From: an uncultured archaeon
GTDB lineage: Archaea; Iainarchaeota; Iainarchaeia; Iainarchaeales; JAAZKV01
DNA length: 32,000 nucleotides
Assembly: GCA_964551375.1 (NCBI GenBank)
Contig: CAZKBG010000001.1
Location: forward strand, 747,329 to 779,328
Direction: 5' to 3'
Part shown: one piece after another, positions 972 through 27,077 of the stretch
How the letters are laid out: the number at the start of each line of letters is the position of its first letter
Position numbering within the stretch: the stretch's first letter is position 1
Translations under genes and position numbers: made by a program
The notes under the pieces: generated by a model
The model's database searches: none
Seen by the model: the letters and a program-made list of their open reading frames with translations, nothing else
What the model was told of the DNA's origin: nothing

Positions 972-2057
972 ATGATATCAGCAAAAGAAGCTAAAATGGA
1001 CATAAAAGAATTTTTGAAAACCAAGGTTCCTGAAATAGAAAATGAAATAGAAAAATTCATCCCAAGAAAGCCCACAAAAAAATGGATTGAAAGCGCGCTT
1101 GGAAAAACAGTGTTTGAACTTGACTTAATCGCCTATGAAAAAGGAGTAAACGAGCCTATTTGGGAGCTTTTAGACCGAGGGGGAAAAAGATTTCGCCCGG
1201 TAATGACCTGCCTTGTTGCAGAAGCAGTTGGCGGAAAATACGAAGACGCGCTAAAACTTGCTCCAATGGTAGAAATAATTCACAACGGGACTTTAATGCA
1301 GGATGATGTGGAAGACGATTCGCAGGCAAGAAGAGGAAAACCCTGCACTCATAAAGTATACGGCGTAGACACAGCAGTAAACACAGGAACAATAATGTAC
1401 TTTTGGCCGATGGTAAAAATACTAACCGACGAGTACAAACTCGGCGACAAAAAAAGACTTCAAATTTATGACATATTCCTTCGCGAACTATTAAGAGTAT
1501 GTTCTGGGCAAGCATGGGATATAGCATGGCACCACGGAGGATTCACTCCAAACGAAGCAGAGTATCTAAACATGTGCCTAAGCAAAACTGGGGTTCTTAC
1601 AAGATTTGCGTGCCAGCTGGGGGCAATAAGCGGAGGAGCGACTAAGGAACAATTTGACGCTCTTGGAGACTTTGGGCAGATAGTTGGAGTAGGATTTCAA
1701 ATCCAAGATGATATACTTGAATTAACCGAAGATAAATTCAAAGAAGGGAAAGGAAGCATCGGCGGAGATATTCATGAAGGCAAGAGAACGCTCATAGTTA
1801 TTAGAACTATTGACAAAGCAAATGCAAAAGACAGAGCGCGCCTTGTGGAAATACTTGATTCCCACACGCTGGACCCAAAAGTAATACAAGAAGCGCTTGA
1901 CATCATAAACAAATACGATGGAATAGCATATGCAAAAAAAAGAGCGGAAGAATTAGTTCTTGACGCGTGGAAAAGAGCGGACAAGGTTCTAAAAGACAGC
2001 AACGCAAAATCTCTTTTGAAGAAATTTGCAGAGTTTTTAGTAGACAGAAAAATTTGA
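972..2057 (+). CDS. idsA: trans-prenyl diphosphate synthase (GGPP synthase-like)
   Basis: 361 aa. First Asp-rich motif is LMQDDVEDD followed by RRGKP; second Asp-rich motif is FQIQDDILE. A G-rich site (GGGGG) lies 9 nt upstream. Product chain length cannot be inferred. Confidence 0.85.
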   Translation: MISAKEAKMDIKEFLKTKVPEIENEIEKFIPRKPTKKWIESALGKTVFELDLIAYEKGVNEPIWELLDRGGKRFRPVMTCLVAEAVGGKYEDALKLAPMVEIIHNGTLMQDDVEDDSQARRGKPCTHKVYGVDTAVNTGTIMYFWPMVKILTDEYKLGDKKRLQIYDIFLRELLRVCSGQAWDIAWHHGGFTPNEAEYLNMCLSKTGVLTRFACQLGAISGGATKEQFDALGDFGQIVGVGFQIQDDILELTEDKFKEGKGSIGGDIHEGKRTLIVIRTIDKANAKDRARLVEILDSHTLDPKVIQEALDIINKYDGIAYAKKRAEELVLDAWKRADKVLKDSNAKSLLKKFAEFLVDRKI

Positions 2058-2090: not shown

Positions 2091-3149
2091 ATGGCTAAAG
2101 CAAAATTATCAGCAACTGAGAATCGAAAAAAAGAACACCTTGAGCTTTGCGCAAAAAAAGATGTCGGTTTTCACAATAAAACTACTCTTCTTGAAGCGGT
2201 AGAGCTTGACTACAAATGCCTCCCTGAAATAAGCATGAGCGAAGTGAACTTATCAACAGAATTTTTAGGAAAAAAATTCGCATTCCCTTTCATGGTGAGC
2301 GCAATGACGGGCGGAGCGCAGATAGCAAAAAAAGTAAATTTAGAAATTGCAGCAGCATGCCAGGAAATGGGGATAGGAATGGGCTTAGGAAGCATGAGAG
2401 CAATGCTCCAACAACCATCACTCGCAGAAACTTATTATGTTAGAGACGCAGCACCGGATATTTTTGTAGCAGGAAATATTGGCGCAGCTCAATTAAAGCA
2501 ATATAATCCAGACCAGTTAAATGAAGCCCTTGAAGCAGTGGGCGCAGATGCACTTGCAATACACATGAATGCCGCACAGGAAGCAGTTCAGCCAGAAGGA
2601 GACGCAGATTTTTCAGCGCTGATAGTAAAAGTCGCTGAATTTGCAAATGAAATTAATGTTCCAGTTTATGTAAAAGAAGTAGGGCACGGCGTATCATATG
2701 ACGTTGCATTTGCTTTGAAAGGAACAAACATACGCGCAATTGATGTTCAAGGAGCCGGCGGAACAAGCTGGACCGCAGTTGACGCGCTTCGCCACAAAGA
2801 AGGATTTGGATTGGCATTTAGAGAATTTGGAATACCCACCGCAGTATCAGTAATTGGAGTGAAATCAGCGCTCTACGGAACAGACAAAAAGATAATTGCT
2901 TCAGGCGGAATAAGAACCGGACTTGACGCAGTAAAAGCAATAGTTCTTGGCGCAAATATGACTGCCGCTGCGATGCCGGTGCTTCAAGCTCAGCAGAAAA
3001 AAGGAATTGAAGGAATAATGAATTACTTAAGCGGACTGCAGAGAGAAATGAATATAACTGCATTTTTGCTTGGTTGCAAGAATATTAAAGAACTTCATGA
3101 AGAGAAACCCCTGCTTTTGGGCAGATTAACTGAATGGCTAAAGCAATAA
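2091..3149 (+). CDS. fni: Type 2 (FMN-dependent) isopentenyl-diphosphate delta-isomerase
   Basis: 352 aa with the hallmark IDI2 motifs NRKKEHLEL, SAMTGG, AAQEAVQPEGD, VKEVGHG, QGAGGTSW and SGGIRTGLD. A GGAGGG ribosome-binding site lies upstream. Confidence 0.93.
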   Translation: MAKAKLSATENRKKEHLELCAKKDVGFHNKTTLLEAVELDYKCLPEISMSEVNLSTEFLGKKFAFPFMVSAMTGGAQIAKKVNLEIAAACQEMGIGMGLGSMRAMLQQPSLAETYYVRDAAPDIFVAGNIGAAQLKQYNPDQLNEALEAVGADALAIHMNAAQEAVQPEGDADFSALIVKVAEFANEINVPVYVKEVGHGVSYDVAFALKGTNIRAIDVQGAGGTSWTAVDALRHKEGFGLAFREFGIPTAVSVIGVKSALYGTDKKIIASGGIRTGLDAVKAIVLGANMTAAAMPVLQAQQKKGIEGIMNYLSGLQREMNITAFLLGCKNIKELHEEKPLLLGRLTEWLKQ

Positions 3150-3174: not shown

Positions 3175-4983
3175 ATGCAAATTGAACTAGGAAAAGTTAA
3201 ATCAAAGGGACAGGGGACAATAGAATACCTGGTTATCATTGCGGTAGTGATAGTAATAGCGCTTGTTGTAGTTGGAATTATTTCAGGAATTTTTGGGGAC
3301 AGCTCCGCGCAGGTTTTAAGCGGCGGCGAAGCCCTTGGAAACGTATCAAATTCAGCAGGAATTAATATTGTTGATTCAGTTTCAGATCCAAGCGGAAACG
3401 GATTAATCACGCTTCAGAATTTATCCCCTGACACAGTGACTATTTCACAAATCACCACTCCGGAGGGCGGGGGCGGGACATTTAATACAAATGTTACTCC
3501 GGGCGATTCAAGAACGTTTTCACTCAACGATCTTAATGCAAGCTGCTTATGCTCGGCAGGCGAAGTGAGAAAAATATGCAATTTTATTTTTTCAATTACA
3601 ACTGCGTCAGGACTTGAAAAACAAGAAACTGTTTCAGTAACAGTTGACTGCTCAACTCAAAATGTGAATCCAGGAGATAGGGTAATTCCACCTCTTGACT
3701 CAACCGCGCCACAAGTTGCGCTGTCATCTCCAAGCGGAACCATTTTGTACGCAAATCCAATAACATTCACTTACACTGCGACCGACAATACTGCAGTGTC
3801 CAGCTGTTCGCTTCTAATAAACGGGGCAGTTGCCCAAACTGATTCCACAGCTCCGTTTGGTTCATTTACGCAGAGCATGACTCTTGGAAAGTACAATTGG
3901 TCAGTGTCCTGCCAAGATGCAAGAGCAAACACTGCTGTTCCAACAGCGGTTGACTTTAATGTATTTACAGCATTTCCTGTAGATTACTTCTTTTACAAAA
4001 ATTCATGGCCTACTTCTTCAATGACCAAGATTTCTTCAACAACAGGCGCGCTGCTTGCAACATTAAGCACAATGGACGCCGACGCATATCACACATTTTA
4101 CTTAGACTCTGATAGAAATTATTTGTGGGTTCCGCACCAGCACGGAAGCGCGACTCCGCAAGTGCCAAATTTAATAAAGATTGATTCAATATCAACAACA
4201 AAAATAGGGCAGTATTCCTCCCCATGCCCAGACATTTATTCAGGAATAGTTGACGGAAGCGGAAATGTATACCTTGGCGGAGGATGGAATTCAAGAGTAA
4301 TTTGCAAATACGACACTTCAGGAACAAATGTTTCTAACTTTACTCCTGATGCAAATATTACCACAACACTCGGACTCACAATCGACTCAAGCAGCAATTT
4401 ATGGATTTACGACCTTGGCGCAAACGGAACTCCTGCAACAACTACTGTGCAAAAGCTTGATTCTTCAACAGGAACAAAAATCCTTGAATTTGAAACAGAC
4501 TGCAACGCAGCAACATTTGCAATTCCGCTTGACGCATTCAAATTTGATTCACTTGGGCAATTATGGCTTGCGTGCGAAACTCCATCAAAAACATATGTTT
4601 ACAGCTCAACAGGGACAAAGCTTTACGAGTTTAACTTTAAGACATTAAGAATAACTCCTGACCAGTTGGGCAAAGTGTACCTGCTTTCCTCAGATAGAAA
4701 CATAATGAAAGTGGACGCATCAAACTATGCTATTCTTTGGAATAATCCATTAAGTTATGCTGATACAGTGACTCATTTCTTCATACAGCCGACTGAAGAC
4801 AAGGGACAGCTAATTGTCGGAAGACAGAATGCAAGCGGTTACATATCAACTTACGATACTAACACAGGGCTTAATGTGAACAACTGGACAAGCGGAAGCA
4901 CTCAAACAACGGGCTCAATAGCCGCACAAAGCCCTGATCCAAACGGATTCTACCACTGGATGCTTTATTCAGGAAAAAAATAA
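3175..4983 (+). CDS. Class III signal-peptide (archaeal pilin-like) protein with large extracellular Ig-like / beta-propeller-like region
   Basis: The N-terminus is MQIELGKVKSKG|QGTIEYLVIIAVVIVIALVV, i.e. a basic leader, G/Q cleavage context, an invariant E and a hydrophobic helix. An Ig-like segment follows (DSTAPQVALSSP...TATDNTAV). After it come repeated blade-like segments (YLWV, NVYLGGGW, NLWIYD, QLWLAC, KVYLLS). It starts 25 nt after fni. Confidence 0.75.
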   Translation: MQIELGKVKSKGQGTIEYLVIIAVVIVIALVVVGIISGIFGDSSAQVLSGGEALGNVSNSAGINIVDSVSDPSGNGLITLQNLSPDTVTISQITTPEGGGGTFNTNVTPGDSRTFSLNDLNASCLCSAGEVRKICNFIFSITTASGLEKQETVSVTVDCSTQNVNPGDRVIPPLDSTAPQVALSSPSGTILYANPITFTYTATDNTAVSSCSLLINGAVAQTDSTAPFGSFTQSMTLGKYNWSVSCQDARANTAVPTAVDFNVFTAFPVDYFFYKNSWPTSSMTKISSTTGALLATLSTMDADAYHTFYLDSDRNYLWVPHQHGSATPQVPNLIKIDSISTTKIGQYSSPCPDIYSGIVDGSGNVYLGGGWNSRVICKYDTSGTNVSNFTPDANITTTLGLTIDSSSNLWIYDLGANGTPATTTVQKLDSSTGTKILEFETDCNAATFAIPLDAFKFDSLGQLWLACETPSKTYVYSSTGTKLYEFNFKTLRITPDQLGKVYLLSSDRNIMKVDASNYAILWNNPLSYADTVTHFFIQPTEDKGQLIVGRQNASGYISTYDTNTGLNVNNWTSGSTQTTGSIAAQSPDPNGFYHWMLYSGKK

Positions 4984-6552: not shown

Positions 6553-7833
6553 ATGAATAAAGAAGCATTCAAAGATTTTTATAAAAAAAGCGTTAAAGAA
6601 AGACAGGAAATAATTTCACGCGAATTTAATCTGACTGATTCTGAAAAAGCACTTCTCACAAAAGAAGGCCCGCTTCCTTTTGAAACAGCAAACAGAATGA
6701 TTGAGAATGTAATAGGGACATTTCCTCTCCCGCTAGGACTAGCAATGAATTTTACAATTGACGGCAAAGAATATGTAGTTCCATTTGTTCTTGAAGAGCC
6801 AAGCGTAGTGGCTGCCGCAAGCAACGCCGCAAAATTATCTTCAGGATTTCGCACAATAGTTGACGAGCCTGTGATGATAGGGCAGATACAGCTTGTGAAA
6901 TGCAAAAATGCTAAAAGCGGACTTGAAAAAATACTTGCAAAGAAAAAAGAGCTTCTTGATGACTTAAAAATGATTGACTCAATTTTAGTGAAATTCGGCG
7001 GAGGACCGCGCGACTTAATCGGAGAGGTAATTAAAACTCCCCGAGGGGAAATGATAGCACTCCAGCTTCTTGTTGACGTGCGAGACGCAATGGGCGCAAA
7101 TGCAATAAACACAATGGCTGAAAAAATTACGCCAAAACTTGAAGAGCTCAGCGGAGGAGAAGTAAGGCTTAGAATTATTTCAAATCTTGCAGTTCATAGA
7201 AAAGCAAAAGCCACAACTACTTGGACAAGAAAATCCCTTGAAGAAAGCTCAAAAGGGGAAATGAAAGGCGAAGAAATAATTGAAAGAATACTTGACGCAT
7301 ACGAATTCGCATCAGCAACACAATTTCGAAGCGCGACACACAACAAAGGAATAATGAACGGAATAGACTCGCTGACAATTGCAACGGGAAATGACTTTAG
7401 AGCAGTAGAAGCAGGTGCGCACAGCTATGCTGCATACAATCACCCTTATGCCCCTCTTACAAAATATTACAAAGACAAAAACGGCGACTTAGTTGGAGAA
7501 ATAGAAATGCCAATGGTGCTTGCAACAATCGGGGGGACAATGAAATCAAACCCTTTAGCACAGCTTTCACTAAAAATACTTGGCGTAAAATCCTCAAAAG
7601 AACTTGCGAGCGTAGGCGCGGCAGTGGGACTTGCGCAAAACTTAGCAGCGCTAAGAGCACTTGCGACAACAGGAATACAAGCAGGGCACATGAAACTTCA
7701 TTCAAAAAACTTAGCCGTTCAAGCAGGTGCAAAAGGAAGCGAAATAGACATAGTTGCTGCGCGAATGGTTGAAGCAAAAGAAGTTACTCAGACAAATGCT
7801 GAAAAAATACTTGCAGAAATAAGAAAGAAATAA
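6553..7833 (+). CDS. hmgA: HMG-CoA reductase, class II (Pseudomonas mevalonii type)
   Basis: 426 aa. Matches class II HMGR along its length by eye: ENVIGTFPLPLG, EEPSVVAAAS, VDVRDAMGANAINTM, ATHNKGIMNGID, ATGNDFRAVEAGAH, GLAQNLAALRALATTGIQAGHMKLH. No N-terminal membrane domain. A GGCGGTGA ribosome-binding site is present. Confidence 0.92.
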   Translation: MNKEAFKDFYKKSVKERQEIISREFNLTDSEKALLTKEGPLPFETANRMIENVIGTFPLPLGLAMNFTIDGKEYVVPFVLEEPSVVAAASNAAKLSSGFRTIVDEPVMIGQIQLVKCKNAKSGLEKILAKKKELLDDLKMIDSILVKFGGGPRDLIGEVIKTPRGEMIALQLLVDVRDAMGANAINTMAEKITPKLEELSGGEVRLRIISNLAVHRKAKATTTWTRKSLEESSKGEMKGEEIIERILDAYEFASATQFRSATHNKGIMNGIDSLTIATGNDFRAVEAGAHSYAAYNHPYAPLTKYYKDKNGDLVGEIEMPMVLATIGGTMKSNPLAQLSLKILGVKSSKELASVGAAVGLAQNLAALRALATTGIQAGHMKLHSKNLAVQAGAKGSEIDIVAARMVEAKEVTQTNAEKILAEIRKK

Positions 7834-9358: not shown

Positions 9359-10399
9359 ATGGCAGGAATAATAGGGTGGGGAAGTTACATCCCAAAATAC
9401 AGAATAAAAGCAGAAACAATAGCAGAAGTGCAGAACGCCGATGCTGACTCAATAAAAGCAGGATTAGGACTTACTGAAAAAAGTGTTCCTGGCAAAGACG
9501 AAGACACAGCAACAATCTCAGTAGCTGCGGCAAGAGATGCGCTAAAAAGAACAGAAATCAACCGAAAAGAAATAGGCGCAGTATACATTGGAAGCGAAAG
9601 CCACCCTTATGCAGTAAAGCCGACCGCTTCAATAGTTGGCGAAGCGCTTGATATTGGAAACACTTACATGGCAGTAGACACTGAATTTGCATGCAAAGCA
9701 GGAAGCGCAACAATACAAATGAATGCGGGATTAGTAAATTCAGGAATGATAAAATACGGACTAAGCATCGGAGCAGACACCAGCCAAGCAGAACCAGGAA
9801 ACGCGCTTGAATACAGCGCAGCAGCAGGCGGAGCAGCGTTCATAATCGGTCCTGACAAAGAATCAGTAGCAATACTTGAACACACTTGCTCTTACACTAC
9901 CGACACTCCTGATTTTTGGAGACGCTCAATGCAGCCATACCCATCACACGCAGGAAGATTCACAGGAGAGCCAGCCTACTTTAAGCACGTAACAGCAGCA
10001 ACAAAAATGATACTTGAAAAAAGCAAACTTGCGATGAAGGATTTTAAGTTTGTAGTATTTCACATGCCAAATGGAAAATTTCCTCTAAGAGTAGCAAAAA
10101 CTTTTGGAGTGACAAAAGAGCAACTTGAAGCAGGACTTGTGGTAACAAAAATAGGAAACACATACTCTGGCTCATCAATTTTGGGACTTGCCAGCGTGCT
10201 TGACATAGCAAAACCAAATGACAGAATTTTAGTAACTTCATACGGAAGCGGAAGCGGAAGCGACGCATTTATTTTCAAAGTAACAGACAAAATTACAAAA
10301 GCCCAAGGAAAAGCAAGAAAAGTAAATGACTACATAGCGCGAAAAGAATATTTAGGATACGCGCAGTATCTAAAACACATGGAGGGCATACACGGTTAG
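9359..10399 (+). CDS. hmgB: HMG-CoA synthase (archaeal type)
   Basis: 346 aa. GIIGWGSYIPKYRI N-terminus, catalytic-Cys context TEFACKAGSATIQ, FHMPNGKFP and GNTYSGSS. AAGGTTGA lies upstream. Confidence 0.92.
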   Translation: MAGIIGWGSYIPKYRIKAETIAEVQNADADSIKAGLGLTEKSVPGKDEDTATISVAAARDALKRTEINRKEIGAVYIGSESHPYAVKPTASIVGEALDIGNTYMAVDTEFACKAGSATIQMNAGLVNSGMIKYGLSIGADTSQAEPGNALEYSAAAGGAAFIIGPDKESVAILEHTCSYTTDTPDFWRRSMQPYPSHAGRFTGEPAYFKHVTAATKMILEKSKLAMKDFKFVVFHMPNGKFPLRVAKTFGVTKEQLEAGLVVTKIGNTYSGSSILGLASVLDIAKPNDRILVTSYGSGSGSDAFIFKVTDKITKAQGKARKVNDYIARKEYLGYAQYLKHMEGIHG

Positions 10400-10408
10400 T
10401 GATTAGAT

Positions 10409-11173
10409 ATGGCTAAACGCTACATGACTCCGCACAAACTTGGCTTTGCAAAAGCTGCTGCAGAAGCAGTGGTAAAGCAGAGAAAAAAAAGCCGAAAAGA
10501 AATTGCAATGGCTCCATGGACAACAATAAAAGGCGCAGGAATAGAACTTTGGAGAGAAAGATTCTGGTTCCACCCGTTTCGCTCAATCGGAATAATAGTA
10601 AGCATTCCGCAAAAAATGCTTTTAAAAATCGCATCAGAAAGAGCAAAAGTAAGAATGGCAAATGTAAATGTTGCCGCAATGGTCAGGGAAGAAATGGAAA
10701 GAGACGCTGGATTCAAAGCAACAGTGCAAACTGCAGTAAAAGACCACAAATGGCTTTATGTTGACTGGAAAGGAAGAATTGTGCAGACAATAAATTCTCC
10801 AATAAAAGAAAGCGAGGAAAATTTTGTTCTCAAAGACAGAGGACATGCCAAAAGGGCGAATATGAAAGAATTTAGCGGAAAAGCAACAATAAAATATGTT
10901 AACGCAAGTACACAGCCGAGAAAATCAAGCGACCCTGCAGGGCCAAGAGCAATAATGATAGGAACAAGAGGAAAAAATTTACACGTATCAAATTTGAGAG
11001 CAGGAAAAGAAGAAGTGATAGTAAGAACAGCTATAGAAAGCCAAACAATGACGCCGTTTGCGTCAAGACCAAACACAGTATTATTAAAATTAAAAATGAA
11101 AGACGGAAGCACAAAGAAATTTGTTGTTAATAAAGATGAAGCAAAAGGAGTAGTAAGAAGATTGGGGTTGTGA
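10409..11173 (+). CDS. Hypothetical basic protein (254 aa), no family recognised
   Basis: Starts 10 nt after the hmgB stop. Codon usage looks like its neighbours, it is K/R-rich, and it has one short hydrophobic stretch (SIGIIVSIP). The antisense ORFs here look like shadows. Confidence 0.6.
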   Translation: MAKRYMTPHKLGFAKAAAEAVVKQRKKSRKEIAMAPWTTIKGAGIELWRERFWFHPFRSIGIIVSIPQKMLLKIASERAKVRMANVNVAAMVREEMERDAGFKATVQTAVKDHKWLYVDWKGRIVQTINSPIKESEENFVLKDRGHAKRANMKEFSGKATIKYVNASTQPRKSSDPAGPRAIMIGTRGKNLHVSNLRAGKEEVIVRTAIESQTMTPFASRPNTVLLKLKMKDGSTKKFVVNKDEAKGVVRRLGL

Positions 11174-11232: not shown

Positions 11233-12387
11233 ATGAAAGTAGGCGTAATAGGAATTGGAATAACAAAGTTCGGAGAAATTTGGGACGCAAGCTTAAGAGA
11301 ACTCTTGCTTGACGCACAGCTTCGCTCATTAAATGATGCAAAAATAGAAGCAAAACAAATAGACGCAATGTACACCGGAAACATGGCAGCAGGACAACTA
11401 AGCGGACAACTGCATGTAGGCGCAATGGCGACAGAAAATCTAAATTTAGAAATACCTTCAATAAGAGTAGAAGCAGCATGCGCAAGCGGCTCGCTCGCAC
11501 TAAGACAAGGACTTCACGCAATAGAAGCAGGCGAAGCGGATATTGTAATGGTGAATGGAGTAGAAAAAATGACTGATGTTTCAACAGAACAAGTAACAAC
11601 AGCATTAATGGGCGCAGGCGACGAAGAGCTTGAAGGATTCAACGGACTAACATTTCCAGGATTATATGCATTGCTTGCAAACGCATATATGCACGAATAC
11701 GGATTAACAAGAGAAGTATTAGCAGAAGTGTCAGTAAAAAACCACTTCCACGGCGCAAGAAACTCATACGCGCAATTTCAAAATGAAATAACAGTAGACA
11801 CCGTAATGGACTCAACAATGGTAGCAGATCCTTTAACTTTATTTGACTGCTCTCCAATAACAGACGGCGCGGCAAGCGTAATACTCGCAAGCGAAAAAAC
11901 AGCTAAAAAAATGGGCGCAGAAGTATATGTAACAGGCTCAGGACTCGCAACTGACACATTATCACTTGCAAGAAGAAAATCACTCCTTGAAATAAAAGCA
12001 GGAAAATTAGCCGCTGGCTTTGCATACAAGCAAGCTGGAATCACCGCAAAGGATATTGATTTTGCAGAAGTGCATGATTGTTTTTCAATAGCAGAAATTT
12101 ACGCAGTGGAAGCCCTGGGACTTGCAAAGCAGGGACAAGGATGGAAATTATACAAAGAAAGACAAACTTACTGCGATGCAGACAAGCCGGTAAATACAAG
12201 CGGCGGACTAAAAGCATGCGGACACCCAGTTGCAGCAACTGGAATAAAACAGGCAGTGGAAGCAGTAATGCAATTACGCGGACAAGGCGCAAAAAGACAA
12301 GTAAAGGACGCTGAAATTGGAGTAACACACAATGTGGGCGGAAGCGGAGCAACTGCAGCAGTGCACGTATTTAGAAGAATGAAATAA
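11233..12387 (+). CDS. Acetyl-CoA C-acetyltransferase (archaeal thiolase)
   Basis: 384 aa. Active-site Cys in VEAACASGSLAL, plus HDCFSIAE, NTSGGLKACGHPVAATG and HNVGGSG. An AAAGGTG ribosome-binding site is present. Confidence 0.92.
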   Translation: MKVGVIGIGITKFGEIWDASLRELLLDAQLRSLNDAKIEAKQIDAMYTGNMAAGQLSGQLHVGAMATENLNLEIPSIRVEAACASGSLALRQGLHAIEAGEADIVMVNGVEKMTDVSTEQVTTALMGAGDEELEGFNGLTFPGLYALLANAYMHEYGLTREVLAEVSVKNHFHGARNSYAQFQNEITVDTVMDSTMVADPLTLFDCSPITDGAASVILASEKTAKKMGAEVYVTGSGLATDTLSLARRKSLLEIKAGKLAAGFAYKQAGITAKDIDFAEVHDCFSIAEIYAVEALGLAKQGQGWKLYKERQTYCDADKPVNTSGGLKACGHPVAATGIKQAVEAVMQLRGQGAKRQVKDAEIGVTHNVGGSGATAAVHVFRRMK

Positions 12388-12653: not shown

Positions 12654-12702
12654 CACAACAAATTAGGGAAGTTTTATTGGAAAATTAGCGGATGGTGTGA
12701 AA

Positions 12703-13101
12703 ATGTTTAGAGAAAGCCCGATAATAAGGTGGAGACACTACAACGACAGATATAAACTGAAAGGAAGCAAATGCACAAAATGCGGAGCAACCTACTTTGA
12801 AAAAAAAGGAGTATGCACCTGCAGCAACATGGACTTTATTGAAATGGACTTCTCAGGAATTGGAAAAATTGCAGCATTCACACAAATCCACGGCGGGCCG
12901 GAAGCATTTGAAAACAAAACACCATACTGCGTGGCAGTAATAGACTTAGCTGAAGGCGCAAGAATTGAAGCGCAGGTAGTAGACGCAAAGTACGAAAATC
13001 TAAAAATAGGAATGGAAGTTGAAGCGCAATTTAGAAAATTCTATGCAAGCGGCGAAAAAGGAGTAATCCACTACGGAACAAAATTTGTTCCAAAATTCTA
13101 A
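12703..13101 (+). CDS. DUF35 zinc-ribbon/OB-fold protein (scaffold of the archaeal thiolase/HMG-CoA synthase complex)
   Basis: Zinc ribbon CTKCGATYFEKKGVCTCS, followed by an OB-like segment (PYCVAVIDLAEGARIEAQVVD...GMEVEAQFRK). The ATG at 12703 is preceded by GGTG. Confidence 0.85.
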   Translation: MFRESPIIRWRHYNDRYKLKGSKCTKCGATYFEKKGVCTCSNMDFIEMDFSGIGKIAAFTQIHGGPEAFENKTPYCVAVIDLAEGARIEAQVVDAKYENLKIGMEVEAQFRKFYASGEKGVIHYGTKFVPKF

Positions 13102-13146: not shown

Positions 13147-13914
13147 ATGAAAATGCCAAAAAAGAATGAGCTGTTAGTTCTGCCTGAAGACCACGCGGCT
13201 CATTTTGCAAAAAAATGGTTAAGATTTGCAAGAATGAAAGGAAAACCGGTTGCAAAAAGAAAACTTGCTGAATTAAAAGAAAAAATGAAACGCTTCGCAA
13301 GACTTGCTCCCATGGTTGAAAAAGCTTACTGGGAAGGATACAGAAAACAGAATCCAACAAGATACCAAGCAATCGCATTATCAGAATCCGTTCTTGAAAA
13401 AGTACTGGCAGGCGAATCAAAAGCAAAAATAAAACAAGCACATTACTTGATTGCGCATAATTTTTCACTGCAAACCTTTCGAGAAAAATACGGAGAAAGC
13501 TTAATTGCACCCGCAGAAAGAATTGCAACTATAACATTTAAGATGCAGGAAGAATTACCAGGATATCTAAAAAGAAACTGGAACAAACTCAGCGAGTTTG
13601 AGCAAAAACAATTGAAAGCCACAAAAGAAGCTCTTCCAGGAATAAATCTAAGCCTTCTTGCGCACGATATTGAAGGAAAGGCGATGTCGATTCCGGTTCA
13701 TTTACTGACTCAAGCGGAAAGAGTTCACAAAGAAGCAATCACAAGCTTAATTGGCGAATCAAGATTTAATAAATTTAACAAAACAATGAACAAAGCAGTG
13801 GATATGCTGATAGAAAAAGAACATGAAGAGGAAAAAAAGAGAGGTTTAGCAAAAGGCGGAGCAAGAAAATTAACAAAAAAAGAAATTGAAGCAAGAAGAA
13901 AAAGAATTGTTTAA
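13147..13914 (+). CDS. Hypothetical K/E/R-rich, apparently all-helical protein (255 aa), no family recognised
   Basis: ATG start with neighbour-like codon usage. It lies between the DUF35 gene and the first mevalonate kinase paralog. The C-terminal tail is highly basic (KKEIEARRKRIV). Confidence 0.6.
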   Translation: MKMPKKNELLVLPEDHAAHFAKKWLRFARMKGKPVAKRKLAELKEKMKRFARLAPMVEKAYWEGYRKQNPTRYQAIALSESVLEKVLAGESKAKIKQAHYLIAHNFSLQTFREKYGESLIAPAERIATITFKMQEELPGYLKRNWNKLSEFEQKQLKATKEALPGINLSLLAHDIEGKAMSIPVHLLTQAERVHKEAITSLIGESRFNKFNKTMNKAVDMLIEKEHEEEKKRGLAKGGARKLTKKEIEARRKRIV

Positions 13915-13933: not shown

Positions 13934-14878
13934 ATGCAAGAAGCAAAAGGAAGAGGATACGGAAAAGTAATACTGTTTGGAGAATACTTTTCTGTTTACG
14001 GCACTCCGGGAGCGGCGGCAGGCATTGACAAATATGTTGAAGTAAAAGCAACCAAACACAAAGACGCAGAAGATGTCATAATTGACGACCAGTTGTTCTT
14101 TAAAGAAAAAGTTTCGCTAAAAGAAAATCCCGAACACATAAAAATCAAAGGGCTTAAGGCAATGTTTAAAGATGAAATAGAAATTTCACTAAAAGGATTC
14201 AAATTAACTTACAGCGGGAACCTTCCCCACGGAGAAGGAATGGGATTTGGCTCGGCGCTTGGAGCCGCAACAGCAAGAGCAGTAAGCTCAATGTTTGACA
14301 TGAAACTAAAAGATGAAAAAATAAACGAGCTTGCGCAAAAATGGGACTCTGCGACAAACGGAACTCCCAGCGAAATTGACGACGCATGCGCAACATACGA
14401 CTCGCTTGTATGGTTTGAGAAAAACAAAGAAGACGACAAAGTCAAGGCAAGGCCGTTTAAATCAGGCGGAGCGCTCTTTTTAATAATCGGCGAAACAGGA
14501 ATAAAAAAACAAACACCAGAAGCTCTTGCGGAAGTAAAGAAGTGGAAAGAAGAAAACAAATCTGAATTTGAAAAAATACTTTCAGAAGCAAAAAAACTTT
14601 CAGGAAAAGCAAAGCTTGCGCTAAAATTCGGCGAAATGGCTGAAATAGGAAAACTAATGAATCAAAATCAGGAACTTTTAAAAAAAATAGGAGCATCTCT
14701 TCCTGAACAGGAGGCATTGATAAAAATTGCGCTTGAAAAAGGAGCATACGGCGCAAAAATTACCGGAACAGGATCTGGAAATATAATTGCGCTTTGCGAA
14801 AACGAGGCAATGCAGGACAAAATAATTGCGACAATCGAACAGAGAGGGTACAAAGCAATTAAAACAAGAATTCATTAA
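13934..14878 (+). CDS. GHMP kinase, divergent mevalonate-kinase paralog
   Basis: MVK-type N-terminus GKVILFGEYFSVYG, with Y replacing the usual H. GHMP motif 2 is PHGEGMGFGSALGAATA, motif 3 is KITGTGSGN, and the substrate loop is PSEIDDACATYDS. I prefer the ATG at 13934 over the ORF-track TTG at 13886, which overlaps the previous gene. Confidence 0.8.
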   Translation: MQEAKGRGYGKVILFGEYFSVYGTPGAAAGIDKYVEVKATKHKDAEDVIIDDQLFFKEKVSLKENPEHIKIKGLKAMFKDEIEISLKGFKLTYSGNLPHGEGMGFGSALGAATARAVSSMFDMKLKDEKINELAQKWDSATNGTPSEIDDACATYDSLVWFEKNKEDDKVKARPFKSGGALFLIIGETGIKKQTPEALAEVKKWKEENKSEFEKILSEAKKLSGKAKLALKFGEMAEIGKLMNQNQELLKKIGASLPEQEALIKIALEKGAYGAKITGTGSGNIIALCENEAMQDKIIATIEQRGYKAIKTRIH

Positions 14879-14906
14879 ATTAGGGCAAATATTTGGGGAT
14901 GAAAAA

Positions 14907-15836
14907 ATGGGAAGCGGAAAAGGATACGGAAAAACAATACTGTTTGGAGAACACTTTGTAGTATACGGGCTTGAAGGAATACCAGCTGCGTTAGGACAAA
15001 TCACCACTGCCGAAGTTAAAAAAATCGCAGGCGAAAATGGGTACACTTTAGCAGACAACCGCCCCGCAACTCCGGGATATAAGGAAGAAAAAGCTGGTGA
15101 ATACAGCGCGCTGATTAATAGAATACTTGAATTCATGAAAGTTAAAGGAAAAATCCAGATTACGCTCGGCGGAGATTTATTCTGCGCTTCAGGAATGGGC
15201 GCAAGCGCAGCATGCGCAGTGGCAATTGCCCGCGCAATAAACGACGAGTATAAACTTAACTGGACAGATGAACAAATAAACAACGCAGCGTTTGAAGGGG
15301 AAACTGCAGGAAGCGGAACACCAAGCGGAATAGATAACACAGTGGCAACATACGGCGGGTTTATAGTTTTCGCAAAAAATCTTGAAGGCGGAGCAAACCG
15401 AATTGATCTTTTGAAAGTGAAAAAGCCTATTGAAATAGTGCTGGCTAATTCAGGATTAACCGCTCTTACAAAAGAAGTAGTAGGAGATGTGAAAAAATTA
15501 AAAGAAGCGGAGCCCGCAAAAGTTGATTTGATATTTTCAGAATATGAAAAGCTTGCAAACGAAGCAAAAAAAGCAATTTCAACAGGCGATTTGAAAAAAG
15601 TCGGGGATCTCATGAATAAAAATCACGAATTGTTGCAGAGATTAACCGTTTCATGCAAAGAACTTGATGAAATTACAAGCACTGCAAGAAATGCAGGGGC
15701 ATTTGGGGCAAAACTCACAGGGACAGGACGAGGTGGAATGGTTATTGCATTAACTCCCGGAAAAGAACTGCAGGAAAAAGTTGCAAAAGCAATTTCAGCA
15801 AAAGGGTATAAGACAACAAAAACAATGATAGGGTAA
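14907..15836 (+). CDS. mvk: Mevalonate kinase (canonical-looking paralog)
   Basis: GKTILFGEHFVVYG, ASGMGASAACAVAIA, GTPSGIDNTVATYGG and KLTGTGRGG. The ATG at 14907 is preceded by GGGGAT. A T6 tract follows the stop. Confidence 0.88.
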   Translation: MGSGKGYGKTILFGEHFVVYGLEGIPAALGQITTAEVKKIAGENGYTLADNRPATPGYKEEKAGEYSALINRILEFMKVKGKIQITLGGDLFCASGMGASAACAVAIARAINDEYKLNWTDEQINNAAFEGETAGSGTPSGIDNTVATYGGFIVFAKNLEGGANRIDLLKVKKPIEIVLANSGLTALTKEVVGDVKKLKEAEPAKVDLIFSEYEKLANEAKKAISTGDLKKVGDLMNKNHELLQRLTVSCKELDEITSTARNAGAFGAKLTGTGRGGMVIALTPGKELQEKVAKAISAKGYKTTKTMIG

Positions 15837-15913: not shown

Positions 15914-16477
15914 ATGGAAAAAAGAATAATTCTTGGAGTCAGCGGGGCATCAGGAGTAAATTATGCCCTTACTTTGCTAAAAGAATTGAAAAAAAGCGGA
16001 GTAGAGGTTCACTTAATCATGAGCGAGTGGGCTGAAGTGGTATTGGCTCTTGAAACAGGAAAAAAAGTAGCTGAAATGAAAAAACTTGCATTCAAAACAT
16101 ACTCAAACAAAGATATGGCAGCAAGCGTATCCTCAAGCTCATTTTTAGTGGATGGAATGATAGTGCTTCCAGCTTCAGTAAAAACAGTATCTGAAATAGT
16201 TCATGCGCACACTTCAAACTTAATCACACGATGCGCGGATAATATGCTGAAAACAAAAAAAACACTTGTGATTGGATTTAGAGAAACCCCAGTCAGTCCA
16301 CCGACACTTGAAAATCTCTATAAACTTTCGCTCTACGGGGCAATTATATTTCCATTAAGTCCGGGGTTTTACAATAAGCCAAAAACAATTAAAGACATAG
16401 AGGGATTTATTGTAGGCAAAGCAATGGATTTATTAGGTGTTAGAAATAATACTTATAAAAGATGGGAGAAGGCATAA
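15914..16477 (+). CDS. ubiX: UbiX-family flavin prenyltransferase (prFMN synthase)
   Basis: 187 aa. RIILGVSGASGVNYA flavoprotein N-terminus, SEWA, and typical UbiX/Pad1 size and layout. It lies directly upstream of a UbiD-family gene. Confidence 0.85.
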   Translation: MEKRIILGVSGASGVNYALTLLKELKKSGVEVHLIMSEWAEVVLALETGKKVAEMKKLAFKTYSNKDMAASVSSSSFLVDGMIVLPASVKTVSEIVHAHTSNLITRCADNMLKTKKTLVIGFRETPVSPPTLENLYKLSLYGAIIFPLSPGFYNKPKTIKDIEGFIVGKAMDLLGVRNNTYKRWEKA

Positions 16478-16504: not shown

Positions 16505-17779
16505 ATGACGTTTAGGGAATTTGTAAAAAAAACTGATTTAACGGTGAGAAAACCAGTTTCAAAGAATTTAGAAGCAAGCGGCATAATTCACTCAGCGGGA
16601 GACAAAAGCATTCTCTTTGAAAAAATAAAAGAATCAAAATATAAAATTGCAGCAAATGTATTTGCAAACAAGCAAAAAGTTGCGGCATACCTTGGATGCG
16701 GAGTAAAAGATTTAGTTCCAGTGATGACTAAAGCTCTTCAAAACCCAACAAAACCAAAATTAGTCTCTAAAACCGACCACCAAGAACACCCTGTTGATTT
16801 AGACCTGCTTCCAATACTGACTCATACAGAAAAAGACGGCGGAGCATATGTTTCAAGCGGAATGATAATTGTAAGCGACCCAGGCGTGGGGCAGAATGTG
16901 TGCTATCATAGAGGAATGGTTATTTCAAAAAACAAATTAGCATTAAGAATACTTGAAAGAAACACAATGGAACTTTTGAAGAAAAACGGCGGAACATTAA
17001 AAGCAGCATACTGCGTAGGAAGCGGAGCAGAAGTATTAGTAGCTGCCGCAATGGCTCCAGCTCTTGGAGTAAACGAACTTGAAATAGCAAATTCAATGAA
17101 GCCAATTGAAGTAATGAAAGCAAAATTATTTGACGCGACACTTCCAGCGGACAGCGAATTTGTATTTGAAGGAACACTTACTTTAAACGAAAGACACAAA
17201 GAAGGGCCGTTTGTTGACTTGACAGAAACAAGCGACATAATCAGAGAAGAGCCTGTATTCACAGTTGAAAAAGTTTATGCAAGACCAAACCCAATATGGC
17301 ATGCGCTTCTTCCAGGCGGATTTGAACACAAAATATTAATGGGGATGCCAAGAGAACCAACTGTGTTTGACGAAGTGGCAAAAGCAGGAATAGAAGTTAT
17401 TGACGTGAGCGTAAATCCAGGCGGAAGCTCATGGTTCCACGTGATTGTAAAAATCAATAAAAAGAATGAAGACGACGGCAAACGCGCAATTGATGCCGCA
17501 ATGAAAGGACACACTTCAGGAAAGCACTTTTTTGTAGTGGATAAAGACATTGATATCTATAATCCGCTTGAAGTAGAATGGGCAATGGCGACAAGATTCC
17601 AAGCAGACAAGAATTTGTACCTGTTCCCAAAGCAGAAAGGATCATCACTTGATGCAAGCGCGGACCAAATCACACGCGAAACATGCAAAGCTGGATTTGA
17701 CTTGACAATGAGGCTTGATAAAGTAGGGAAAATGACAAGAACAGAATTCCCAAAGTACAATATAAAAGATTATTTGTAA
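16505..17779 (+). CDS. UbiD-family decarboxylase; by context, trans-anhydromevalonate-5-phosphate decarboxylase
   Basis: 424 aa. UbiD features are EGPFVD, NPGGSSWFHV and DKDIDIYNPLEVEWAMATRFQ. The specific function is inferred from its position between ubiX and the AcnX pair, with mvk and ipk in the locus. Confidence 0.75.
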   Translation: MTFREFVKKTDLTVRKPVSKNLEASGIIHSAGDKSILFEKIKESKYKIAANVFANKQKVAAYLGCGVKDLVPVMTKALQNPTKPKLVSKTDHQEHPVDLDLLPILTHTEKDGGAYVSSGMIIVSDPGVGQNVCYHRGMVISKNKLALRILERNTMELLKKNGGTLKAAYCVGSGAEVLVAAAMAPALGVNELEIANSMKPIEVMKAKLFDATLPADSEFVFEGTLTLNERHKEGPFVDLTETSDIIREEPVFTVEKVYARPNPIWHALLPGGFEHKILMGMPREPTVFDEVAKAGIEVIDVSVNPGGSSWFHVIVKINKKNEDDGKRAIDAAMKGHTSGKHFFVVDKDIDIYNPLEVEWAMATRFQADKNLYLFPKQKGSSLDASADQITRETCKAGFDLTMRLDKVGKMTRTEFPKYNIKDYL

Positions 17780-17841: not shown

Positions 17842-19029
17842 ATGAAGCTAACAAAACAAGAAAAGGATATGCTGAACGGCAAATACGGAAACGCCGTAAA
17901 GAAAAGCATGGGAATACTTGTAGCGCTTGGAGAAATATACAACGCAAAAAAATTAATTGATGTGACAAGCGTGCAAATAGCTGGAGTAAGCTATGACAAC
18001 CTTGGCGACGCAGGACTTGAATTCTTGGAAGAACTTGCAAAAGACGGCAAAGTAAAAGTTCTTACTACTCTCAATCCTGCGGGAATGGACCTTGAAAATT
18101 ATAAAGCACTTGGAATTAGCGAAGAGTTCGCAGTAAAACAAAGAAAAGTAATAGAAGCATTCTCTAAAATGGGAATACTTCCAACATGCACCTGCACTCC
18201 TTATTTAATTGGAAATAATCCTCATTTTGAACAACACATAGCGTGGAGCGAAAGCTCAGCTGTAGCATACGCAAATTCAGTAATAGGCGCTTACACAAAC
18301 AGAGAAGGCGGACCAAGCGCGCTAGCAGCAGCATTAACAGGAAAAACTCCTCTTTACGGAATGCATTTGCCCGAAAGCAGAAAAGCGCAAGTAAAAGTAA
18401 AAGTAAAATGCAAAATCAAAGGAACTTGGGAATTTGGAGCGCTTGGAAAAGCAATCGGAGAAAAAGTAAAAGCAAAACCAGTTTTGATTACAGGAATAAA
18501 AGAAGCGACAGTAGATGAGCTAAAATCATTCTCAGCAAGCATAGCAACATACGGCGGAGCAGCGATATTTCATATAAAAGGAATAACGCCTGGAAAAACA
18601 CCGACTCCAAAAGAAGAAATTGTAATTACTGAAGAAGACATTAAAAAAGCGGAAAAAGAAATGGACTCGGACTGCGAAGTTGATTTTGTAAGCGTAGGAT
18701 GCCCTCATGCAAGCCTTGCAGAACTTGCAAAAATCGCAGAGCTTTTGAAAGGAAAAAAAGTTACAAAAGAATTCTGGATAACAACCGCCCGCCCGACAAA
18801 AAAAATAGCTGATGCTGCAGGATATGCAAAAATAATTGAAGACGCAGGCGCAAAATTCGCCGCAGATACTTGCTGTGTTGTAGCTCCAATAAAAAACAGA
18901 TTCAAATGCATGGCAACGGACTCAGCAAAAGGATGCTACTATGCAGGCGCAAAAAATAATTTCAAAGTAAAAATTATGCCGATTGAAAGATTAATAGAAG
19001 AAGCATGCAAGCCAATCGGGCAAAAATGA
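17842..19029 (+). CDS. Aconitase X catalytic subunit (DUF521); phosphomevalonate dehydratase large subunit
   Basis: 395 aa. MKLTKQEKDMLNGKYG N-terminus. Cys ligand contexts are PTCTCTPY, VGCPHAS and ADTCCVV. Confidence 0.85.
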   Translation: MKLTKQEKDMLNGKYGNAVKKSMGILVALGEIYNAKKLIDVTSVQIAGVSYDNLGDAGLEFLEELAKDGKVKVLTTLNPAGMDLENYKALGISEEFAVKQRKVIEAFSKMGILPTCTCTPYLIGNNPHFEQHIAWSESSAVAYANSVIGAYTNREGGPSALAAALTGKTPLYGMHLPESRKAQVKVKVKCKIKGTWEFGALGKAIGEKVKAKPVLITGIKEATVDELKSFSASIATYGGAAIFHIKGITPGKTPTPKEEIVITEEDIKKAEKEMDSDCEVDFVSVGCPHASLAELAKIAELLKGKKVTKEFWITTARPTKKIADAAGYAKIIEDAGAKFAADTCCVVAPIKNRFKCMATDSAKGCYYAGAKNNFKVKIMPIERLIEEACKPIGQK

Positions 19030-19082
19030 AAAAAGCGGTAAATTGAGTAATGAAATGATATTTTGAAAAAAATGTGGTGTTT

Positions 19083-19475
19083 ATGACAGAACTAAAAGGA
19101 AGAAAAATATTTGGCGGCTCAATCGAAGGAGAAGCGCTTGTAACAACACAAGGGATTTCATTCTTCGGCGGAGTAAATCCTGACAACGGCGTAGTGCAGG
19201 AAAAAGGACACGAACTTGAAGGGCAGAGCATATCAGGAAAAATACTTGTTCTCCCGCAGGGAAAAGGCTCAACAGTAGGAAGCTATGCGATTTACCGAAT
19301 GAAAAAACAAGGAACTGCTCCAAAAGCGATTGTATTAAGCGAATGCGAAGCAATAGTTGCGGTAGGCGCGATAATTTCAGAAATCCCGTGCGTTGACAAG
19401 ATTGATATTTCAAAAATAAAAACAGGGCAAAAGCTGAAAGTAGACGGCGACAAAGGAATAGTTGAACTAAAATAG
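19083..19475 (+). CDS. Aconitase X swivel subunit (DUF126); phosphomevalonate dehydratase small subunit
   Basis: GEALVTTQGISFFGGVNPDNG and GKILVLPQGKGSTVGSY. The ATG at 19083 is preceded by GGTG; the ORF-track GTG at 19074 is also possible. Confidence 0.85.
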   Translation: MTELKGRKIFGGSIEGEALVTTQGISFFGGVNPDNGVVQEKGHELEGQSISGKILVLPQGKGSTVGSYAIYRMKKQGTAPKAIVLSECEAIVAVGAIISEIPCVDKIDISKIKTGQKLKVDGDKGIVELK

Positions 19476-26220: not shown

Positions 26221-26240
26221 AAGGCTTTTTTAGCCTTTTG
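26221..26240 (+). terminator. Short hairpin plus T-rich tail after the giant ORF
   Basis: AAGGCT(26221-26)-TTTTT-AGCCTT(26232-37) followed by TTG, 22 nt after the stop. A TATA-like TTATATAAAA for ipk follows directly. Confidence 0.4.
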
Positions 26241-26264
26241 TTATATAAAATAAGTAGTGAAAAA

Positions 26265-27077
26265 ATGGAAAATTTAATTGTAATAAAACTTGGCGGTTCG
26301 TCAATTACAAAAAAAGCCGAAGGAAAATTTGAAATGAACGAAACTGTTTTAAAAAGCGCAGCAAAACAAATTTCCCAAGCTCTCAAATCCGATAATTCTC
26401 TTAAATTAATTCTTGTGTGCGGAGTGGGACCGTTTGGGCACACAAATGTAGTAAAATACGATTTGAATAATGGGATAAAAACAAGCGCGCAAGAAAAAGG
26501 AGTGGAAGTGACAATTAAGGACTGCAATTTTGTTGCTGAATCAGTTATGGACGCGCTGGAAAACGAAGGACTGAAAACTGAACACGTTCCAGGATATCTT
26601 GTGTGCAAACAAGACGGAAGAAAAGTAATTTCATTTGACGCAGAGCCTTATACTAATGCAGTTGAGAAAGGAATAATTCCAGTAACAACAGGAATAATGG
26701 TAAAAGACAAGTCGCTTAAATGGAGCGTGATGAGCGGAGATGCTGCAATTGCGCAAATTACAATGAGACTCATTCCAAAAAAAGTAGTGATAGGAACAGA
26801 TGTTGACGGAATATTCACAGGCGACCCAAAAGAAGACAAAAAAGCAAAACTAATTGAAGAAATTTCAAATACAAATCTTGAAAGCGTACTAAAAAAAGCG
26901 ACAAACTCAAAAGCAGTGGATGTAACCGGCGGAATGAAAGGAAAACTTGAAAAATTAGCAGAAACACTCAACGGAACAGAATGCCAGATTTTCAATCTTT
27001 TCACTGACGGAAATTTAAAAAAAGCGCTTCTTGGAGAAAAAATGACTTCCACCAAGCTTAAAATTTGGATTAATTAG
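26265..27077 (+). CDS. ipk: Isopentenyl phosphate kinase
   Basis: Amino-acid-kinase fold N-terminus IVIKLGGSSITKK, the IPK-typical GVGPFGHT, and GTDVDGIFTGDP. I prefer the ATG at 26265 (preceded by GTAGTGA, TATA ~20 nt upstream) over the ORF-track TTG at 26238. Confidence 0.88.
   Translation: MENLIVIKLGGSSITKKAEGKFEMNETVLKSAAKQISQALKSDNSLKLILVCGVGPFGHTNVVKYDLNNGIKTSAQEKGVEVTIKDCNFVAESVMDALENEGLKTEHVPGYLVCKQDGRKVISFDAEPYTNAVEKGIIPVTTGIMVKDKSLKWSVMSGDAAIAQITMRLIPKKVVIGTDVDGIFTGDPKEDKKAKLIEEISNTNLESVLKKATNSKAVDVTGGMKGKLEKLAETLNGTECQIFNLFTDGNLKKALLGEKMTSTKLKIWIN

Follow-up and report, generated by a model that had tools for sequence, protein, structure and literature searches.

Apparent decay of a second mevalonate kinase beside a canonical copy in the mevalonate operon of an uncultured Iainarchaeota archaeon

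The synthesis of lipid precursors in archaea has mevalonate kinase as its committed kinase, and the enzyme is also much used in metabolic engineering; in the published archaeal mevalonate pathway, a single such kinase is enough. Here, we focus on a stretch of 32,000 nucleotides (the window) from an uncultured archaeon of the Iainarchaeota, a DPANN group (assembly GCA_964551375.1, contig CAZKBG010000001.1, positions 747,329 to 779,328), in which two mevalonate kinase genes, termed MVK_A (A) and MVK_B (B), stand in tandem within a mevalonate operon. With moderate confidence, we read A as a catalytically crippled or dead mevalonate kinase, a nascent pseudokinase, and not as the enzyme of a new pathway step. 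B would serve as the working mevalonate 5-kinase of the organism, while A would come from a second lineage of mevalonate kinases, often the sole canonical kinase of the same operon in relatives; because both lineages are present in this genome, A would be redundant. After the split from its nearest relatives, constraint on the mevalonate pocket and the Mg-ATP site of A would have been lifted, with fold and reading frame kept, and A would now be either heading for loss or retained because of some non-catalytic role, for instance ligand binding or a partnership with B. The loss of activity and any such role are what we infer from comparison of sequences and models; the decay of active-site positions wherever A and B occur together is seen directly in the family.

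An earlier note, made from the letters of this DNA, had described two same-strand genes resembling mevalonate kinase with a gap of 28 nucleotides between them, and the coordinates bear this out; to judge by the spacing, the two are probably co-transcribed. The motifs that it quoted are exact, namely GEYFSVYG and PSEIDDACATYDS in A, and GEHFVVYG and PSGIDNTVATYGG in B. Alternative TTG starts appear at 13886 and 14826 in a mechanical list of open reading frames (ORFs), and the ATG starts are preferred for both genes because the N-termini of orthologues (MQEAKGRGYGK..., MGKGKGYGK...) support them. The two proteins are 34% identical (BLASTP E 1e-47), and the genome (1.09 Mb, 10 contigs, 93% complete) encodes no other GHMP kinase. 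Against TIGR00549, the whole-protein hidden Markov model (HMM) of NCBIfam for mevalonate kinase (EC 2.7.1.36; curated cut-off 163.05 bits), A scores 184.6 bits and B 221.8 bits, and both therefore lie above the cut-off.

The state of each active site was scored by counting departures per copy over 55 alignment columns, chosen for conservation of at least 93% among 30 sole-copy kinases. B departs at none of these columns, which agrees with its earlier description as the canonical copy. A departs at 12 (H18Y, V20S, I27A, S106G, A107S, E138D, G147E, N150D, G156D, N170V, V198L and G281S) and additionally carries a one-residue deletion in motif III. The motif I His (His25 in Leishmania major, His20 in human) is Tyr18 in A and His in B. 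Motif II reads GMGFGSA in place of the usual GxG[FY]SAA, such that the invariant Ser, present in B and in all sole copies, is replaced by Gly106 with a Ser one residue later. The Mg-binding Glu has become Asp (E138D), and motif III reads GTG-SGN as against GAGxGGN or GTGRGG, having a one-residue deletion and lacking one Gly. A nevertheless retains Lys11, Glu17, Ser146, Asp149 and the motif III Thr, as well as the equivalents of L. major Lys18, Glu24, Ser152, Asp155, Thr198, Lys279 and Thr283; the catalytic pair, Lys18 and Asp155 in L. major, is thus kept as Lys11 and Asp149, and B has it too. The earlier statement that A keeps the GHMP motifs is therefore true only in part: it stands for the Lys, the Asp and the other retained residues, and it fails for the motif II Ser, the Mg-binding Glu and motif III.

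Mevalonate kinase of L. major (2hfs/2hfu) is the best solved sequence relative of both proteins (E 8e-41 for A, 5.5e-71 for B), and the residues of A were mapped onto it via a printed alignment. B has every catalytic and substrate-binding residue of this enzyme. A, in contrast, has Tyr for His25, Ser for Val27 and Leu for Val202 (positions 18, 20 and 198), and thereby differs in three of the five side chains holding (R)-mevalonate; Gly for Ser112 (position 106; rat Ser146) and Asp for Glu144 (position 138; rat Glu193); Glu for the near-universal Gly at position 147, one residue before the catalytic Asp155; and a shorter motif III loop. The motif I His touches the C3 hydroxyl and the methyl group of mevalonate. 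In the Methanosarcina mazei enzyme, it is the sole direct contact with mevalonate (PMC6283576), and in human mevalonate kinase its replacement by Tyr or Leu strongly lowered activity (PMC1851959). Ser112 and Glu144 bind Mg-ATP (PMC1851959; PMC6283576), and the motif II Ser has been described as invariant among mevalonate kinases (PMC1851959). Among 74 database homologues, the motif I His is present in 71, its change to Tyr is found only in A and one other degenerate copy, and the change of Gly to Glu beside the catalytic Asp occurs in A only; these differences are real departures and not family variation.

Such departures bear on the possibility that A is an ordinary mevalonate 5-kinase isozyme with other kinetics or feedback regulation, providing redundancy or dosage. 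It would be consistent with this that A lies above the TIGR00549 cut-off, that its catalytic Lys, Glu, Ser and Asp are kept, that its fold model is confident, that the A copies of two other genomes (G011 and G013) are altered only mildly, and that Candidatus Iainarchaeum andersonii has a tandem pair of which both members are canonical. We nonetheless consider an isozyme unlikely: the same His to Tyr exchange strongly cut the activity of the human enzyme (PMC1851959), the Ser that is invariant elsewhere (PMC1851959) is Gly in A, the TIGR00549 score of A falls some 55-65 bits under those of sole A copies, and 12 of 55 columns are altered as against 0-3 in all presumed working copies.

Structure prediction and comparison, which had been proposed as a check, point to an intact fold. 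The AlphaFold2 (AF2) model of A is confident throughout, with a predicted local distance difference test score (pLDDT) of 92.7 and a predicted template modelling score (pTM) of 0.89, and its best Foldseek matches are the mevalonate kinases 2hfu, 6mdf, 4hac and 1kkh (TM 0.84-0.88), the L. major enzyme 2hfu leading at 0.88. The GHMP two-domain fold is thus predicted to be retained in A. Comparison with families of other specificity gave no new identity. A as a phosphomevalonate kinase (PMK) was rejected, with 49.2 bits against a cut-off of 165.7 (TIGR01220) and 45.8 against 500 (NF040957), and so was A as a mevalonate 3-kinase or mevalonate diphosphate decarboxylase (MDD), with no match at E<=0.001 to NF040848 or TIGR01240. 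By comparison, a true PMK of a relative scored 247 bits and an MDD of a relative 360 bits.

The family sample comprises 38 Iainarchaeota-like genomes, across which the operon order HMG-CoA (3-hydroxy-3-methylglutaryl-CoA) synthase (HMGS), thiolase, DUF35, kinase slot, UbiX, UbiD, AcnX is conserved. The slot and genome content is A only in 15 genomes, B only in 11, A with B in six (G000, G006, G011, G013, G019 and G022) and B followed by a third type, C, in four (G012, G015, G016 and G020), with none found in two. Sole A copies keep all catalytic residues and score 238-250 bits on TIGR00549. In the tree, B groups with kinases of many archaeal phyla and is split from A plus C with support of 100/100, C lying on the A side on a long branch. 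A profile scan of genome contigs returned, among the matches listed, mostly B-like kinases of other archaeal phyla, which served as the outgroup for the tree, and few A copies; the A lineage is restricted to the Iainarchaeota-like family. Because the slots hold mostly one or the other, A and B appear to be interchangeable, alternative mevalonate kinases that are presumably isofunctional. Candidatus Iainarchaeum andersonii SCGC AAA011-E11 carries its tandem pair at L091:2434-3441 and 3291-4451, with canonical motifs in both copies and the upstream copy in a separate long-branched clade. A record titled 'Patescibacteria group bacterium', probably a contig of archaeal origin that was binned wrongly, has an A-like kinase (GDHFAIYG, ATYRS) at L054:3489-4406.

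The nearest relatives of the window hold A as their only kinase. The flanking genes of the closest genome, G004, are 81-96% identical to those of the window, and it has A only. In a second lineage, P0003, whose A protein is 83% identical to that of G004, A is followed after 64 nt by UbiX without B, and the junction is gap-free in three independent assemblies. The earlier note had named absence of the divergent copy from close relatives as an outcome that would count against its proposal. The A lineage is in fact present there, but as a canonical sole kinase.

Decay of A is tied to the presence of B. Sole A copies depart from the conserved columns at 0-3 of 55, as they must by construction, and co-resident B copies, which were excluded from the definition of the columns, likewise depart at 0-3. 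Co-resident A copies depart at 6 (G011), 7 (G013), 7 (G006), 12 (the window) and 13 (G019), and C copies at 30-35, including the catalytic Lys, the catalytic Asp and all of motif II. The TIGR00549 score falls in step, from 238-250 bits in sole A copies to 237, 222, 219, 185 and 170 in co-resident A copies and 62-68 in C. Of the contrasts between co-resident and sole copies, all four that are phylogenetically independent, on a tree built without the 55 columns, run in the same direction. Where both kinases occur, B stays canonical and A decays. Two metagenome contigs carry further altered copies, each followed by a 309-residue GHMP kinase: P0024, with 25 departures and also with Tyr for the motif I His, and P0013, with 6. 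The earlier suggestion of a regulatory or inactive paralogue is thus the one favoured, the active-site columns of A being unconstrained wherever a canonical B is present.

Some of the altered residues recur. The motif I His to Tyr change is common to the A protein of the window, C and P0024, and Gly156 to Asp is found in the window A, in the clade of G006 and G019, and in most C copies. His to Tyr requires C to T and Gly156 to Asp requires G to A, and because both are single transitions, their recurrence under relaxed constraint is unsurprising; the parallel changes were considered as proof of positive selection and rejected as such for the same reason. As a separate observation, an eroded A-type copy with 8 departures (P0014, L148:1635-2582) lies outside any mevalonate operon, flanked by a CYTH-domain gene on one side and a ribose-phosphate pyrophosphokinase gene on the other.

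Evolutionary rates place the change on the branch leading to the window. The A protein of the window is sister to that of G004 (support 97/89 and 99/98), and its terminal branch is 0.38-0.43 as against 0.17-0.18. In a Tajima-type relative-rate test, it carries 48 unique changes against 23 for the G004 copy (chi-square 8.8), and at the conserved columns 12 against 1; the outcome is the same against P0003, P0004 and P0005. Conserved columns changed in 12 of 55 cases (22%) and other columns in 36 of 247 (about 15%), compared with 2% and 9%, respectively, for the G004 copy. Between the two genomes, which differ by a dS of about 0.8-1, the pairwise ratio of non-synonymous to synonymous divergence (dN/dS) is 0.26 for A and 0.03-0.15 for the remaining genes of the operon. 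Branch dN is 0.17 for the window A and about 0.10 on the sister side; three-point estimates of branch dS are saturated, with values of -1 to 2.8, such that only dN and the pairwise ratios are usable. These rough numbers suggest that constraint on the catalytic and substrate columns has essentially gone, while the remaining protein would still be under some purifying selection.

A might instead be a gene that is dying out, not expressed or of no use, in which no stop codon has arisen so far. The accelerated rate and the lost active-site constraint would suit this explanation, as would the repeated loss of one copy or the other across the family and the in-frame TAG in one C copy (G015). It seems a poor prospect all the same. 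The frame of 314 codons is intact, and in simulations of neutral change by substitutions alone, about 3.5% of runs kept an open frame when some 15% of residues had changed, which is the approximate share in A, and about 19% of runs did so at about 8%. Non-conserved columns have changed in about 15% of cases against a neutral expectation of about 29%, a rough estimate that assumes a branch dS of about 0.5. In addition, the AF2 model is confident throughout, the genome is just 1.09 Mb, and the analogous C copies are under purifying selection.

The C proteins show how far such decay has gone elsewhere in the family. They form about ten protein clusters (P0075-P0084) that lack Lys11, Asp149, motif II and motif III, fall under the TIGR00549 cut-off and have no recorded match to Pfam GHMP_N; in their sources, they are labelled hypothetical or 'mevalonate kinase'. 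C lies directly after the canonical kinase B and before UbiX. Between G016 and G020, dN/dS is 0.125 for C and 0.112 for B from the same pair of genomes, and C thus evolves under purifying selection as strong as that on B. The copy of G015 is split by its single TAG, which is either the mark of a pseudogene or an assembly error. C resembles the window A in that both come from the A-side lineage, both form a tandem pair with a canonical B at that slot of the operon, and both have Tyr for the motif I His, while Gly156 to Asp is found in two of the three complete C copies scored. The two differ in that C is far more degraded and follows B, whereas A precedes B, and in that the window A arose independently, as the sister of the canonical G004 and P0003 copies. 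Being dead yet selected, C evidently has a non-catalytic role, and one is therefore possible for dead copies; neither the nature of that role nor a share of A in it is implied.

Gal3p is a galactokinase-derived GHMP pseudokinase that acts as a sensor; in its eukaryotic host, it transduces a transcriptional signal, and its partner is known. Like A, Gal3p of Saccharomyces cerevisiae (3v2u, 3v5r) is the paralogue of an active GHMP kinase; it lost catalysis by way of small active-site changes yet was retained by selection, which makes it the best precedent for the possible fate of A and for the probable nature of the C family. GAL3 is among the weak sequence matches of both A and B. Unlike Gal3p, A is a lineage-specific singleton and not an established family. 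That A and, independently, C are pseudokinases with a non-catalytic job in the archaeal mevalonate operon is a tentative proposal, which we think possible but would not bet on. Such a job could be the sensing of mevalonate, ATP or a prenyl phosphate, or the partnering or regulation of B. As regards partnership, the L. major enzyme has been reported as a monomer in solution and the M. mazei enzyme as a dimer, and a pairing of A with B is speculation.

The earlier note had also raised the prospect of a kinase with a shifted substrate, which might act on another hydroxyl of mevalonate, on phosphomevalonate, on an anhydro intermediate or on an unrelated small alcohol, and might feed an undescribed branch of the pathway. 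Several features could be read this way. Changes cluster in the substrate pocket (H18Y, V20S and V198L), three new acidic side chains surround the catalytic Asp (G147E, N150D and G156D) while the Lys/Asp pair is intact, and conserved columns are altered at least as often as the rest (12/55 versus 36/247); in addition, several altered codons in A require two non-synonymous steps, which could reflect directional selection. The Mg-ATP site has been hit too, however (S106G, E138D and the motif III deletion), although its preservation would be expected in a retargeted kinase. The archaeal mevalonate route is complete within the window, with an enzyme for every step, and because these enzymes include isopentenyl phosphate kinase (IPK; NF040647, 165.6 bits against a cut-off of 120), every kinase step is accounted for; A as a replacement for IPK was ruled out by the same good IPK gene. 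The nearest relatives run the identical operon with one canonical kinase of the A type, A has no affinity to the PMK models (49 and 46 bits) or to the mevalonate 3-kinase model, and the same positions decay in other co-resident copies, along a trend that ends with the loss of Lys and Asp in C. The recurring His to Tyr and Gly156 to Asp changes are single transitions. A shifted substrate is accordingly considered unlikely, and the undescribed branch is not supported.

A number of observations weigh against the reading of A as a crippled or dead kinase. A keeps the Lys/Asp pair, Ser146 and the motif III Thr and still passes TIGR00549, and because of this, residual or altered kinase activity is possible. 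The changes at positions 156, 170 and 198 also occur in a divergent clade (P0025, with a relative, P0029, on L054) whose kinase is seemingly sole on its contig, and since this clade shares these positions, not every change in A need be damaging. Four independent contrasts cannot give a sign-test p below 0.125. Divergence from G004 is near saturation, with dS of about 1, so that the branch dN/dS can be given only as an approximation of roughly 0.3-0.4. G004 has a 10-N scaffold gap exactly at its junction of A and UbiX (L023:7420-7430), and for this reason, its 'A only' content rests on the whole-genome search together with the gap-free P0003 contigs. Finally, the protein cluster of the window A has a single member.

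Nothing relevant came from a literature search for pseudokinase forms or paralogues of mevalonate kinase among DPANN archaea. The evidence supports the case as one of a GHMP kinase paralogue turning into a pseudoenzyme, and the literature searched contained no mevalonate kinase paralogue of this kind. If the eroded copies do regulate or scaffold, they would be the first pseudoenzyme regulators known to us in the archaeal mevalonate pathway, and a pseudokinase job of this kind would be a prokaryotic counterpart of yeast Gal3p that had arisen repeatedly in ultra-small DPANN genomes. If they have no such role, the locus is a clean example of what follows, by reciprocal loss and decay, when one operon comes to house two kinase lineages. 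In either case, the locus and its relatives form a natural series of interchangeable kinases, part-eroded copies and a fully dead yet selected copy, set in genomes of about 1 Mb, which seldom keep spare genes. The series also calls for caution in annotation, as similarity alone gives, or would give, A and especially C the name 'mevalonate kinase'.

Table 1. Kinase pair, surrounding mevalonate pathway genes and C-type genes of relatives. Positions without a contig prefix are those of the window.
Feature	Position	Strand	Remarks
IdsA-type prenyl diphosphate synthase	972-2057	+	Isoprenoid gene
Type 2 isopentenyl diphosphate (IPP) isomerase	2091-3149	+	Isoprenoid gene
Class II HMG-CoA reductase	6553-7833	+	Isoprenoid gene
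HMG-CoA synthase	9359-10399	+	Upper pathway, same operon as A and B
Orphan ORF	10409-11173	+	Without Pfam or NCBIfam match
Thiolase	11233-12387	+	Upper pathway, same operon
DUF35	12697-13101	+	Same operon
Orphan ORF	13147-13914	+	Without Pfam or NCBIfam match
MVK_A, divergent mevalonate kinase paralogue	13934..14878	+	314 aa; ATG start, TAA stop
A/B spacer	14879..14906	.	28 nt; purine-rich GGGGAT directly 5' of the ATG of B
MVK_B, canonical mevalonate kinase	14907..15836	+	309 aa; ATG start, TAA stop
UbiX	15914-16477	+	Lower archaeal pathway
UbiD-family decarboxylase	16505-17779	+	Lower archaeal pathway
AcnX large subunit	17842-19029	+	Lower archaeal pathway
AcnX small subunit	19074-19475	+	Lower archaeal pathway
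Isopentenyl phosphate kinase (IPK)	26238-27077	+	NF040647 match
C-type kinase-fold gene, G016	L036:9470-10357
C-type kinase-fold gene, G012	L037:8221-9159	-
C-type kinase-fold gene, G020	L039:1041-1949
C-type gene, G015	L040:8262-9176	-	Split by one in-frame TAG

The two orphan ORFs of the operon (table 1) are 82% and 73% identical to their counterparts in G004, in order of position, with dN/dS of 0.15 and 0.09 in the same comparison, and the P0003 lineage has equivalents of both, of 273 and 257 residues. They are real conserved genes of this sub-lineage.

The lower-pathway module is often exchanged in this group, and such plasticity would be in keeping with two kinase lineages coming together in a single operon, after which there was reciprocal loss or one copy decayed. 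In G039, which belongs to another family of the order, the classical route replaces UbiX, UbiD and AcnX (L042:8235-11782), the gene order being B-type kinase, MDD (TIGR01240, 360 bits), a Nudix/IDI1-like gene and PMK (TIGR01220, 247 bits). PMK-like genes also lie beside or near B in G014, G042, G046 and G050. The P0004 lineage (L146:3901-5894 and L147:4001-5994) has a third lower-pathway arrangement in the same operon slot, with an A-type kinase, an MDD-like decarboxylase, a HAD hydrolase and an HD-domain protein. A gene for a HAD-family hydrolase (L143:6919-7722) is inserted in the P0003 lineage, where it separates the UbiD-family decarboxylase from AcnX.

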